Shown in pieces: positions 33,001 to 45,000 of a stretch of DNA of 64,000 bases; the first letter of the stretch is position 1, and each line of letters starts with the position of its first letter. A program made the position numbers. The stretch spans positions 811,660 to 875,659 of the forward strand of contig CM000429.1 of the NCBI GenBank assembly GCA_000165345.1, in the 5' to 3' direction.

Positions 33001-36000
33001 TTAAGATAATGGACCCAGAAACTAAAGATCTGGATCATGATAATCTAAAATACTGGTGTAAACTCTTTAAAGTCAATTTACTTTTCCCTCCTTGCAAATC
33101 TGATAATATAAGAAGAGTGGGTAATAATGACACCATTAATTCAAACATTCTTTTGGAAAAGAATCCAGAAATAGTAGAAGTAATGAAAGATGTGAAAAAC
33201 AATCAATACGTGAATAATCAGAAAATAAGTCCCTTAAGTTATTTTGAAAACATTACTGAAAATAAAAGAAACTCTCTACCTTTGGACGTGGAATTTATAA
33301 GTGAGTCAGATGGGGAGGCTATAGAGGAAATTGACCAAGGATATGACCATGCCCCAGAAGTAGAAGAAAAAAAAGGGGAAGAAAAGGAGGAAGAGGGAGA
33401 AGAGGAAGTGGAAGAAGAAGAAGAACAAGAAGAAGAAGAGGAAAAGGATGAAAAAGATGTTAGAGGAGCCGATGATATGGATCAAGTTAATGCAAACCAT
33501 TACAATGAGGGAGAGAACAAACTGGCCGATGTTAATGAATATCATTCAGCTGAAGAAATTTTCGATCAAGAAATAGATGAGAAGACAGAATCTGATAAAG
33601 AGGGAAATATAAAGGAAAGGGAAGCCAATGAAAACTCAGAGGAAGAAACCAACTTGAAAATGAGAATAGAGGCACACAAAAGGCTTAAAGCAATAAGAAA
33701 GAAAAGAATGAAGCTCAAGAGAAAAATGATGGAGAGATACGGACACTTATTTGAAAATGAAGCAGAGGAAAGTGATGACGATGGGATCAAAATATTAAGG
33801 AGAGGGATTGGCGGAGATTATAGTGATGATGATGATGATGATGATGACATAGACTGGGATGAGCTGAGCGGTTTTTCTGATTTTATTGATGATAACAATT
33901 ACGAAAATGGGGAGCTTGATGGAGATGCAATTCAAGCTCACTTGAAACATATGAAGGAAATAGAAGAAAAACAATACAGACAATTGTTCACCTTGGAGGG
34001 TATTAAGGAAAGAAAAAATAAAGTATATGGGTTTGCTGCCGGTCAGGATGATGGGATTGAAGGTGAAACTAGATTGGAGAAGAAGAAGAACGAATTACTC
34101 TTTAACTCTGCCTTTTTTGATGATGATGTTATTAGTGAGTTTTGGACAGATGAAGAGGAGTTGGACGATTATGAGGAAGAAATTGATGAGAGAAATTTGA
34201 CGGAAATGCTTGGATTGAACTATGAAGAATGGCAAAATAGCTTACCAAAAAAAACGAATTCTTCTGATGAATCGTTGAATGAACAAAGAAAACTCAAATA
34301 TAACATTTTAAAAGAATCTCTGATTAAAGAAGCTTCTGGAAGTATCAATATTCTCAAACAAAGACTCAAATCCATTCAAACTAAGCTTAGTATAGAAGAA
34401 AACATTAGTCCAAATGAAAAGAATCAATTACAAACAAAATATATTGAATGTATGGAAAAACTAAAAAAGCTTTTACATTCAATTCATTCTGCCTGCAACA
34501 AGTGTATCTACGAAAATCCACAATTCTTTGACCATATTGATATATATGAGTACATTCAGAGACGTGAAGAATCCAGAAGTAAAAAAAAATTCAAGGCTAA
34601 AAACACTGAAGACAAAATCAAACAAAAATGCAAATATCAAAACAAGTATCTCAGAGAAAATGTAAATCCGTTAAATAAGATCGGAAAGACAGGATCTGAC
34701 TCAGAAGATGATATAATTAATCGAAAAAGGGTGCAAAAGAACGGAAAGAATATAGTAAATGTTAAAGGAGGGAGGTTTAAAATCTCAAAGAAGTAAAACC
34801 TTCTAGGGAAACCCACTCTAATGTCTTATAAATATTAAATAGTGCTTAATGTTACTTAATTTTAAAAATCTTACTAAATCTAACATTTATTTTCTTCAAT
34901 CTCTGTATTTAAACCTACCTTTTATTCCCCCGTTATTTTAAGATATTTCTAAATATTTTTGGCGGTAACCCCTGTCCACATGCATGCATTAATAATTATT
35001 AAAAATGAATCAAAAATGTAGAAATTAAGAGAATTTGTATGGTTGTTGGTAATATGCGGATAGATGTTTGGTGGAAGAAGAAGAGTTAATGGAGGAGCTC
35101 CAGCTCCATTATTATCAAATACAGAACAATCTACATGCCAAATAACTAGTAAGTTAATGATAAATGTAGTCAATAAAATAATTAATAATAAATAGGTTTG
35201 GTTTACGTAGTTACATCAATTATATCATTGGTTTGTTTAATAGTTCCAGTTTTTTTAGTAAGTAAATATACTGCTTGTTGGATATTTGAACTTTAATAAT
35301 TTAGGCAACTACATGCAGTGACCATAATACATTATGGTTTGTACAGGTAAGCATAAAGAACATTTTTAAAAGTAACAAAACATTCTGATATTTATTTACT
35401 TGTATTTTGAAGGTTGTTTTGGGATTAGATTTTGTTTTTATTTTTGTATTTATGTATTTGGGTTTATTACCAAATGGGACTGAAAGTGAGTTCAGCAGGT
35501 ACATTGGGACAGGGGTTGTTATATTGGCGATTCAGTGTATAATATTGGCATTTGGTATTTTTGTTTTTATCTCACTACTTTACTATTTACTTAGTAATGG
35601 AGACGAGTGTAGAAGTGAATCCATTCTTAATATCACTTTAACTTCTATCAATTTATTACACTCAACAATAACAACTTTCACTTCAGTAAAGCTATTATTG
35701 AAACTGTTCACATCAATAGCAACCCAGTATAAGACATATGATAAGATAGCTTAGTGTAGGATGTTAGAGGATAAATTAGGAATAACTAATATTTTCTAGT
35801 AAAGAATTTTCTAGTAAAGAAAAAAATAACTAAAGAGTAAACCCCCTAATAAAAATCAGAAAAGTATGGCAGAAACTTAACTTGAATTGACTTTTTTAGC
35901 AAAATTCTTCCATTTATTTTCTTGAGAACTTTTGAATTTTTGGTATTCCTTTCCTAGTCTGTTTTTTGCTTGTTTGCTATCCTCGTTAACCTTCTTCTTA

Positions 36001-42000: not shown

Positions 42001-45000
42001 TTGAAGCCTAAGCCTTGCTGGAGATGTTAAAATGACCTTTCTAACAATCTCTAATTTAAACTCATCAAGGGTATATGGAATTCCATTTTTCTTTACTGGC
42101 CAGGGACCATCAATTGCTTTAATTAACAAATCAGCGTACAAATATGCTCCTTTAGTAATAAATGGAGTTGAAGTTACATAATATTGGTTACCCTTTCTCC
42201 CACAAAGAATTATATCAAGCTGGTCTATTGCATTAACAATGCTATTCTGCAAAATAAAAAATGCATAAAAAACAAAGACAGCAAACTTGCTGAGTTTAGA
42301 CAAGTTACAGATCATTAATTCTTGTCAATAGAAGCATTTACCGTCTAATTTCGTTTTTTTCTGTACTTTTTTTCGCCCTAGCTCTTAATCTAAATTTTTT
42401 TTCTCACAATTAGATCTACACTGGCGCCTTGGCGGGAATTAAGAGATCAATATTCATATTTATAATTCAAAGGTCAAAAAGCAAAGATAATTACTTTAAA
42501 TTTCATTATTTTCTTAAATATAAATTATTTATTCGGATTCCCCCTGAGATTTAGACGATTATTTGTACTTATACACTCCACAAGTTGATAGTGAATCTAA
42601 ACGCCTCTATTTAACAGTGCAAAGCTCGATAGTCACATAAATTCAAACTTAATTGATTAAATATAAAGCCAAAGTTCTAGTTCTGTTCAGCATTGATTTA
42701 TTATGCATTATAACTATAATTCTAAACGCTTCCTTTTGTTTCGAAACATTTTATTTCTGTAAAAGGAAAGTTAACTTTATTTGTGGAAAGTTAATTCTTG
42801 TTTTATTCTTGAATGAATTCGAACAGAATATAAGTTATTAGTTATATCTGACTCTTTGAAAACATTAATAAACAAGAATTCATAAAAATTATTCCAAATT
42901 TGTGTGTGCACACATATTTAAAGTAAATATGTGCAATCTTTGTGTTCATGGAAGCTTAATAGTAACTATTTAAAATTTATGTTTTTATGAATTCAAAAAT
43001 CAATACAAAGTAATTGTATTTTTAAACCATATATCAGATATGGTGTAATATAGAATAGTAATTAAACTAAGAATTACCAAAAAAAATATATGTACAATGT
43101 TTTCGTGCTTTAGGTCATGCAGTGAATCACCATTCTGTCTTCTTTTTGGGTTTAAGGAGGAGAAATCAAACAACTATGGGACAGATAGATCACAGAGAGC
43201 ACTGAGCTCTAAGATGTCAGAAGCCTCCGATGTGAAGGAAAAGAAAAAGAAACAAAAACAACTGTTCAATAGGAGAACAGCTGATGAAATTCTCACTATT
43301 TGCAGATCTTGGGAAAACTACATACATCCTAGGGCAAAGGATTTCTGGAAGTCGTCGGAACAAGTATATGAAATTTTATCTAATATAGCGAGTAACATTG
43401 ACCGCAGTGACGATCCAATCACAAGCGGAGAGGAACAATGCGTAAGATGGCATGGAGAATTAGAAGCAGAAGATGGGGCGCCAGTTATCAGGATACTCAA
43501 GCCTGGGGAAACTGATGAATGCCAAACCTATGTAAATAGAATATTAGCATTTCTATACGCGGACGATGAGAGTTTCCTGGAACTACAGAAAAAGCCGCCT
43601 GTAGCATTCAAGAATGTCTGCGAGGATCCTATTTGTATTAATTTGACACATATCTCTTTAGAAGAATAATATTAGTTGGATTAATTGCGCCAAATTAATT
43701 CTAAATAGTTGGCGCTTAAACGTAGACGAGTATCGCGTAAGATTTTTATTATCTTATGCGCAATACCGGGGAGAAATATTTTTATATTTAGTGCCATTTA
43801 ATTAAAATAAACAACACATTTAGGGGGGGAATAGTTAATTTACGTAAGAAAGTTTCTATTTAATTTGTTACATTAATTGTTAAAGTTTTACTAAATCTTG
43901 TCTTAATAATTCTTTGATTGGTAATAATTTTAGACAATACAGACATTAACTTCTCATTAACCGTATTCTTCAGAAAATTTGGTTTTATTAATATTGGTTA
44001 ATTGAGATGAAGTTTTCTAAGTACTCTAAGATTTCCCTTGGTTTGTTAGCCGGTGCATTTGCAACAGCTACTTCCGTATTTAGTCATCCAGTATACATTT
44101 CAGAATGGGCTTCTGAAATTAGAAGCATTGTAGCTAGTAAAAATCTTAAAATCGAGGCCCCTGAACAACTCGAACAAGTACTTCTCAGTGGAATTAACTT
44201 TGATAGTTTTGATGCCTCTTGCTCTGCATTATTACAGAAAGTTATCAAAGAGATAAGTTTTGATTCAACACCCTTAAACTTGGAATCCGCTTTGGACATC
44301 TGTGCTGTAATCAACCCATGGAATTCCATGGAATGTAGTGGTATTACTGGAGTTACAGCTTCATATGCCAGATCTCTTCAAGAGTTTGTTCGCATTAGAG
44401 ATAGCTCAAAAGGTGATTTAAGAGCTGCTTGTTTGGTTGCATCCGCGATTGCACCAGGAAGACCATTCGCTCCTTTAATTAAGGGTTCTATTAAATCAAA
44501 GTGCCAAGAAGTTTGCTCGGGACCTCTTTCAAAGTCAATCTCCGCAATTGACCCATCATTCTGTAGTTTGTCTATTGACTTGTGCAATTCAGTTGACTTC
44601 TCCCTATATGCCGCTTTCAGTTCCTTCAACGAGAGAGAGCTTGGTATTGCAGTCGCAGTGTCAGTACTGTTATCTGAGGGAAGTGCCGGACTTAGAACAT
44701 CTTTCCGCGAGGGATGCAGATTCGTCCACTTCCTTAAGAACAAGGGATCATTACCAACTGCATCATCAGAGGTCTCAGAGTCTGACTTATTATCAAATAT
44801 TTCGGAGTTCTATAGATCCAAACTCGTTGAATCTGGTTTGTTGCCTGCAACCGACTCTAATTTAAGATCAGGCGATGCAGTCTTCTTAAAAGTTTTGAAC
44901 TCACAGGTTGCTAGAGCAATCATAACTGTCCTTGAAGCACAAATCCCAAAGAAGCAAGCTGATGTCAGACCAAAGAAACCTACAATAGCCAGCACCCACA

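Follow-up and report, generated by a model that had tools for sequence, protein, structure and literature searches.

Two adjacent secretory-protein genes near the 3' end of Cryptosporidium parvum chromosome 1: a genus-wide tandem with a weak C-terminal profile similarity

Introduction

Parasites of the genus Cryptosporidium build their niche with secreted proteins, and because most of these have no recognisable domains, any handle that allows one to group them is useful. In this article, we focus on two adjacent genes, here called A and B, which lie in a stretch of 64,000 nucleotides (GenBank assembly GCA_000165345.1, contig CM000429.1, positions 811,660 to 875,659 of the forward strand). This whole stretch, hereafter the window, corresponds to the 3' end of chromosome 1 of Cryptosporidium parvum. 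Existing annotation lists both as hypothetical proteins, and in the full-text literature their probable identifiers, cgd1_3790 for A and cgd1_3800 for B, are mentioned in a gene list only. Taken as a whole, the data are best explained if A and B are single-copy, Cryptosporidium-specific secretory neighbours that most likely arose from one very old tandem duplication, a reading to which we give a probability of about 0.5.

Several described systems can be compared with this pair. The GRA proteins of Toxoplasma and the Glu-rich antigens of Plasmodium combine a signal peptide with long, fast-evolving acidic low-complexity regions, and this is also the general build of A and B; however, homologues of A and B were found in Cryptosporidium only, and the pair shows no enrichment in S-x-E/D sites. 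The copy number of the subtelomeric MEDLE, SKSR, FLGN, WYLE and GGC families varies between species. Like A and B, the members of these families are secreted, close to a chromosome end and arranged in tandem, but they are defined by clear shared motifs, whereas A and B, if they are related at all, have diverged nearly beyond recognition and have kept their position genus-wide. None of the motif strings of these five families occurs in A or B. BAR and F-BAR domains and other elongated helical bundles are also listed among the comparison systems. Finally, the small-granule and dense-granule proteins of Cryptosporidium (SG1 and DG1 to DG8, according to Guerin et al. 2023 as summarised in PMC12688253 and PMC13241007) resemble A and B in having a signal peptide, no recognisable domain and a distribution restricted to the genus. 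SG1, which is cgd1_3810, is a validated small-granule protein (PMC12688253), and in the infected mouse ileum its transcript is in the C. parvum top ten by abundance (PMC8852703). A and B differ from this group in that they have no detectable similarity to the 912-amino-acid (aa) protein encoded nearby in the window, which is probably SG1.

Two single-copy genes kept side by side across the genus

Genes A and B are real, adjacent and co-oriented on the minus strand. A preliminary description of this stretch had placed two open reading frames (ORFs) at 35877-38333 and 38497-42315, and both were found at exactly those coordinates, the true ATG of A lying at 38321, 12 nt inside its ORF. The A protein is 100% identical to C. 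parvum EAK88283.1/QOY43243.1 (814 aa), and the B protein is 100% identical to EAK88276.1/XP_628190.1, the matches for both being C. parvum Iowa II, BGF and ATCC entries. In the chromosome 1 assembly CP029780.1 (881,470 bp), B is found at about 855.6-859.4 kb on the minus strand, so the plus strand of the window is the plus strand of the chromosome, and the end of the window is close to the 3' chromosome end. Judging from the chromosome order and from the label cpbgf_1003800 carried by B, gene A is probably cgd1_3790 and gene B is probably cgd1_3800. The G+C content of the window is about 30%.

Word-based searches retrieved homologues of A in C. hominis, C. tyzzeri, C. meleagridis, the chipmunk genotype and C. 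canis, and homologues of B in these same species plus C. ubiquitum, C. felis, C. xiaoi and C. ryanae. A HMMER search of 1.84 billion representative proteins with a profile of the C-terminal region of A added C. felis, C. bovis, the gastric species C. serpentis and one further assembly. Outside Cryptosporidium, no homologue was found for either protein by the word-based searches, nor for A by HMMER with its C-terminal profile, and in this respect the earlier view of A and B as secreted, lineage-specific proteins holds. One 1812-aa protein from ENA (P0034) matched the A profile with E = 6e-7 and was rejected: it is built from seven near-identical units of some 203 residues that contribute about 7 bits each, and it has no match to the B profile. 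Its E-value does not indicate homology because it sums seven repeat scores.

The arrangement of the two genes is conserved far beyond C. parvum. The C. ryanae locus has B at 10001-13912 and then, on the same strand, an 801-aa orthologue of A (E = 4e-126). Its flanks match those of the window: two genes, of 189 and 859 aa, lie to one side of the pair, and three genes, one of 1166 aa, one for Abhydrolase_2 and one for an ankyrin protein, lie to the other. On an 8.3-kb contig of C. serpentis, a 1162-aa orthologue of B (E = 1e-52) lies directly upstream of a 952-aa orthologue of A. The preliminary description had suggested a comparison of synteny and copy number: the B-then-A tandem is kept in both species with one copy of each gene per locus, and A and B are each single at this locus in every species examined. 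From these gene orders, the tandem is as old as the genus. Because it is present in both C. ryanae and C. serpentis, the duplication, if there was one, predates the radiation of the genus, and the recent lineage-specific expansion pictured earlier has to be abandoned.

A weak profile-level match near the C-termini

When the two families are compared as profiles, a weak and reproducible similarity is found near their C-termini. With the B sequence of C. serpentis included, hhalign aligns residues 725-778 of A with residues 1141-1193 of B over 53 columns, with a score of 33.1-33.2, P = 8e-4 and a probability of 24%. The E-value depends on the depth and extent of the profiles (0.23 with full-length profiles, 0.056 with the C-terminal regions only and 0.026 after addition of four distant A orthologues), and the register remains constant. 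When all columns of the B profile were shuffled, 150 times over, the score was 15.1 +/- 2.6 and the highest value 25.1, against the real 33.1; in 180 local shuffles that retain the local composition, it was 14.4-14.8 +/- 2.3 and the highest value 23.4. Reversal of one profile brought the score down to 13.8 and 12.1, and when both were reversed the match stayed, at 29.9. Decoys drawn from real families of the same genomes, among them the N-terminal 950 residues of B and the N-terminal 520 residues of A, gave scores of 11.3 to 21.9 in ten comparisons. In a full-length hhalign comparison (814 x 1272 residues), the top match is once more this C-terminal region, now extended to A 690-798 and B 1094-1209 (score 36.6, P = 0.005). 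Here the numbering of A is that of the 814-aa protein, whereas the range 725-778 is given in residues of the ORF.

The similarity can also be traced in individual sequences taken from different species. Among 72 Smith-Waterman comparisons of cross-family pairs, the forward B sequence scored higher than the reversed one in 64 (means 53.7 vs 39.9), and composition-adjusted BLASTP gave 41 cross-family high-scoring segment pairs at E <= 1 vs 2 for reversed B. The best of them has E = 0.003 (C. serpentis A vs C. xiaoi B), and most of the strongest are in the hhalign register. Among 126 ORFs, the hidden Markov model (HMM) of each family ranks the other family as a top non-self match, with marginal E-values of 0.047 and 0.072. 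The preliminary description had proposed to look for further members; a search for the module in the remaining ORFs of the window and in those of two loci found it in none of them. Pairs further upstream in the extended alignment, such as SKYSRDYSSEEL / NKLSYFYSREEF, were rejected, since that region scores at the level of the null.

The matching segments also agree in their predicted structure. AlphaFold2 models the C-terminal region of A as seven helices and residues 955-1272 of B as a long helical bundle with a terminal beta-hairpin (predicted local distance difference test, pLDDT, 77; predicted template-modelling score, pTM, 0.73). The elements predicted independently for A and B (listed in Table 1 with coordinates local to each C-terminal fragment) agree within a residue in the hhalign register, their offset of 9-10 residues being that of the alignment. 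When the secondary-structure strings were added to hhalign, the probability was 29%. In this register, the family-invariant G240 of A is aligned with G231 of B and Y249 with Y239, and the conserved R/K210 of A is aligned with the invariant R201 of B. The pattern of the module is roughly F-x-x-F-[IV]-[SA]-R-[HN]-x-x-L ... G-[LI]-[ST]-[KR]-[ED] ... Y.

This segment is not the similarity that had been described earlier, which consisted of four C-terminal motif pairs matched by eye. BLASTP of A against B gives no C-terminal match, its best hit (E = 0.33) being in low-complexity sequence. The preliminary description had proposed shuffled sequences as the yardstick for a Smith-Waterman alignment of the last 300 residues, and the real alignment does no better than these: it scores 39 vs 42.7 +/- 6.9 for 500 shuffles (z = -0.54), and 361 of the 500 shuffles score at or above the real value. 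The segment that contains the four motifs (A 584-706, B 1130-1204) is at chance as well, with a local score of 26 vs 25.9 +/- 4.6 (z = 0.03), a semi-global z of 0.19 and a z of 1.4 with BLOSUM45 and soft gaps. Moreover, the B motif DFKVSAKDH (FKVSAK) is not kept among B orthologues, which have FNISIPSKG or FGIDIHKMG at this place, and none of the four pairings occurs in the supported register: hhalign pairs B LKRAVSQI with A LAFTLHEM and B DFKVSAKDH with A GYPVKKRFF, and in the extended, full-length profile alignment A IKYGLLKYLS pairs with B ILPYKPIKDLS. The motif pairs are chance resemblances and should not be used.

Secretory character

Both proteins start with what resembles a cleavable signal peptide (MISGKLQIFILGFFLIFLGVHS/ESS in A and MICNLSKLSKFAVFVFYAFFILQNSIVNA/IDQ in B), as had been proposed, and several sources name the orthologues 'signal peptide-containing protein'. 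The call for both rests on hydrophobicity and inspection. At a Kyte-Doolittle cut-off of 1.6 in a 19-residue window, the signal peptides are the sole hydrophobic stretches in the two proteins, bar one marginal window of A (19 residues, at 540) that barely passes the threshold with 1.62. Neither A nor B carries an endoplasmic reticulum retention signal (KDEL/HDEL). These features point to soluble proteins of the secretory pathway, probably the cargo of a secretory organelle.

In an anti-DG8 pull-down, cgd1_3790 was represented by 6 peptides in mass spectrometry, with a log2 fold change of 2.69 and p = 0.20 (PMC13241007, S1 Table). In the GFP-DG8 pull-down, cgd1_3810 (SG1) and cgd1_3780 were enriched, the latter with a log2 fold change of 2.82 (PMC13241007). 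These data are compatible with A and B being secretory or host-interface proteins, without establishing it, and we infer that a granule or effector role may be envisaged for them.

Origin of the pair

An ancient paralogy of A and B is plausible, if unproven, and we consider its chances to be slightly better than even. One tandem duplication would have taken place before the diversification of the genus, A and B having been co-oriented neighbours ever since. A module of about 55 residues near the C-terminus, made of a helix, a short helix, a basic loop and a helix, would be the last recognisably shared part. After the duplication, two ordered domains would have been either gained by B or lost by A. 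Each protein joins long, fast-evolving acidic disordered regions to a slowly evolving basic helical C-terminal region. The tandem duplication proposed in the preliminary description is thus retained in part, through a weak genus-wide profile match that lies in another register and covers about 55 residues, or up to about 100 when extended, and not 300.

The most serious competing view is that A and B are unrelated neighbours, that their similar build reflects a common style of Cryptosporidium secreted proteins and that the match arose by chance between amphipathic Lys-rich helices. Several results weigh in this direction and against a common origin. The C. parvum pair alone shows no similarity, either by BLASTP or by Smith-Waterman, and the hhalign probability of 24-29% stays below 30% throughout, being 7% for the full-length comparison. 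The signal hangs on one divergent sequence, as the score is 23.2 (P = 0.025) without the B sequence of C. serpentis and 20.1 (P = 0.07) without both C. serpentis sequences, and the nominal P-values are somewhat optimistic because several alignment versions were tried. Nothing is similar beyond the short segment: with a score of 13.5 vs a null of 13.4 +/- 2.7, the upstream two-thirds of both C-terminal regions (local residues 1-195 in A and 1-186 in B) are exactly at background, and B contains two domains that are absent from A. The exhaustive HMMER search with the A profile retrieved no B-family protein at E <= 0.001, one secondary-structure-aware shuffle reached 30.7 vs the real 35.1, and the structural model of A is of low confidence (pLDDT 58). 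As for the secretory role, the enrichment of cgd1_3790 in the pull-down is non-significant, and its gene-identifier mapping is inferred. A chance match would, however, have to account for a real score that stands about 7-8 standard deviations over the shuffle nulls of three kinds, that exceeds every real-sequence decoy, and that is abolished by reversal of one side and kept by reversal of both. It would also have to account for the strongest BLASTP matches, which come from many pairs and fall mostly in one register, with reversed controls that are nearly empty, for helix and loop boundaries that coincide between independent models, and for the occurrence of the match at the same relative place near the C-termini of adjacent, co-oriented genes. 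On balance, we find it rather unlikely that A and B are unrelated.

The shared segment could also be a convergent or independently acquired functional motif, such as a partner-binding site or an organelle sorting signal. This would fit the restriction of the similarity to a short segment with very different flanking architecture, as well as the presence of family-invariant G, Y and R among the aligned positions; however, about 55 residues with three secondary-structure elements and matching boundaries are long for convergence, and the genus-wide adjacency and co-orientation are more simply explained by duplication, so this is to us an improbable explanation. As for the nature of A itself, public records name its orthologues 'ATRX' or 'transcription regulator XNP/ATRX, DEAD-box superfamily', and taken literally these names, found in several database records, would make A a chromatin remodeller of the SNF2 type. 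The defining ATPase domain is absent: a Pfam search of A returned no domain at E <= 1, be it SNF2 ATPase, helicase C-terminal or other, and a sequence search of the PDB gave nothing meaningful, with two marginal matches only, neither of them a helicase (the best, with E = 0.013, is an importin-beta-like protein). Since A has no helicase or other Pfam domain and carries an N-terminal signal peptide, the name is evidently an artefact of an acidic low-complexity match to KOG1015, and we reject this identification as having next to no chance of being right.

Feature layout of the two genes

Table 1. Features of genes A and B in the window, with coordinates on the forward strand; structural elements are given as residues local to the C-terminal fragments
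Feature	Coordinates	Strand	Remarks
Gene A coding sequence	35877..38321	-	814 aa plus stop; listed ORF starts at upstream TTG, reaching 38333
A basic all-helical C-terminal region	35880..36746	-	289 aa; isoelectric point (pI) 10.0; net charge +32
A segment matching B at profile level	36000..36161	-	ORF residues 725-778, GYLSKLPTFQKFVSRHRKLAFTLHEMMNKAGYPVKKRFFMVDRKGLSKEHLKLY
A acidic Ser/Glu-rich disordered core	36747..38255	-	residues 23-525; pI 4.3; net charge -66; Ser 19%, Glu 17%
Conserved island within A core	37698..37814	-	SEYSPKNQEESIMLLEDPNYTVEDALALLRKQRKIHE; 82-100% identity among measured C. parvum-to-C. canis orthologues
A signal peptide	38256..38321	-	residues 1-22, MISGKLQIFILGFFLIFLGVHS; strongest hydrophobic stretch in A; kept in orthologues
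Intergenic spacer	38322..38496	.	175 bp, B stop codon to A start codon
Gene B coding sequence	38497..42315	-	1272 aa plus stop; labelled cpbgf_1003800 in BGF gene model
B basic helical C-terminal region	38500..39435	-	residues 961-1272; pI 9.6; beta-hairpin at end
B segment matching A at profile level	38737..38895	-	residues 1141-1193, DFYRRNEKYINFIARNGSLKRAVSQILELFDFKVSAKDHLSAHGGTRDDINRY
B disordered region 2	39436..40005	-	residues 771-960
B conserved ordered middle domain	40006..40650	-	residues 556-770; no counterpart in A
B acidic disordered region 1	40651..41730	-	residues 196-555; pI 4.2; net charge -55
B conserved ordered N-terminal domain	41731..42228	-	residues 30-195; no counterpart in A
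B signal peptide	42229..42315	-	residues 1-29; cleavable-looking, MICNLSKLSKFAVFVFYAFFILQNSIVNA/IDQ
Long helix			A 179-209; B 177-201 (AlphaFold2, fragment-local)
Short helix			A 212-224; B 203-215 (AlphaFold2, fragment-local)
Low-confidence loop			A 225-242; B 216-232 (AlphaFold2, fragment-local)
Start of next helix			A 243; B 233 (AlphaFold2, fragment-local)

The features of both genes are collected in Table 1. The preliminary description had seen in both proteins a long disordered core followed by an ordered C-terminal end. The acidic disordered cores are real, but the picture is incomplete for B, which has two extra ordered domains (30-195 and 556-770). In both proteins, the disordered regions are the least conserved, fast-evolving parts, and no tandem DNA repeats were found in the low-complexity regions. 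In A, the core is 30-37% identical between C. parvum and C. canis vs 73% for the C-terminal region. The island SEYSPKNQEESIMLLEDPNYTVEDALALLRKQRKIHE, whose flanks are 30-37% identical, is visibly well kept in the remaining intestinal-clade species too, and may act as a short linear motif for interaction or processing. Enrichment of FAM20C-like sites (S-x-[ED]) in the acidic cores was considered and rejected, since the core of A contains 14 of them vs 22.7 expected.

A PEXEL/TEXEL-like motif, [NQ]R[SKR]LLE (RSLLE, RKLLE, RRLLE), is present in A at 36849-36866 on the minus strand, about 40 residues upstream of the helical region. Nearly every orthologue of the intestinal clade keeps it (NR-VLES in the chipmunk genotype), C. 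serpentis does not, and B has no conserved equivalent. This motif could be a cleavage site that separates the acidic core from the basic domain.

In B, the N-terminal domain (residues 30-195) is 61-100% identical across the genus and 38% identical to C. serpentis. A Pfam search of the whole protein gave a sub-threshold BCDHK match only, and a comparison of its C-terminal region with the PDB gave generic helical matches only. The BGF and ATCC gene models of B (1248 aa) remove an in-frame GT..AG 'intron' of 72 nt, at 41719-41790 on the minus strand. This corresponds to residues 176-199 (VIVAALKMHGVVESTIKRKQALSE), which include the genus-invariant A179, A180, L181, K182, H184 and G185. Because it would remove genus-invariant residues, the intron seems doubtful, or else may mark an alternative isoform.

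Neighbouring genes

Two genes away from B, at 44007-46745 on the plus strand, lies the gene for a protein of 912 aa whose signal peptide (MKFSKYSKISLGLLAGAFATATSVFS) is clear; the G+C content is locally higher there (0.41). From the chromosome order, this gene is probably cgd1_3810, that is, SG1. Neither A nor B has detectable similarity to it (HMM E > 6; hhalign scores of 12.6 and 15.8).

On the other side, between A and a 1162-aa gene, a small transmembrane-rich ORF is found at about 35347-35754 on the plus strand. Two C. parvum assemblies annotate it as a gene of 136 or 171 aa, and the Logan calls have a 67-aa gene on the opposite strand instead. Again from the chromosome order, this ORF (about 35.3-35.75 kb) is probably cgd1_3780 ('signal peptide-containing').

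Closer to the chromosome end, a 924-aa protein with a signal peptide is encoded at 57160-59934 on the plus strand. It contains a long region rich in Lys, Glu and Arg as well as a tail of Arg/Ser repeats, and its sole Pfam match is a weak one to 'Transformer', caused by the Arg/Ser repeats. Together with A, B and the probable SG1 gene, this gene forms a group coding for secreted proteins within the final 30 kb of the chromosome.

Meaning for Cryptosporidium biology

If they act as their build suggests, A and B would be the cargo of a secretory organelle, released at the interface between the parasite and its host. The basic helical region may bind a membrane or a partner, and the acidic region may help in packaging or solubility. 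A bolder proposal, which we offer as speculative and consider less likely than not by a wide measure, would make A and B the only survivors of a Cryptosporidium-specific family as old as the genus, defined by a so far unrecognised C-terminal helix-loop-helix module that docks them to a common partner or organelle, and would place them, with the probable SG1 and cgd1_3780, in a conserved island of secreted host-interface proteins near the 3' chromosome end.

The observation is a modest one, at the level of annotation, and nothing in it is mechanistically surprising. It corrects the misleading 'ATRX' name of gene A, and, if the module is real, it would offer something to test in two secreted proteins that are uncharacterised, conserved throughout the genus and encoded close to a validated small-granule gene.

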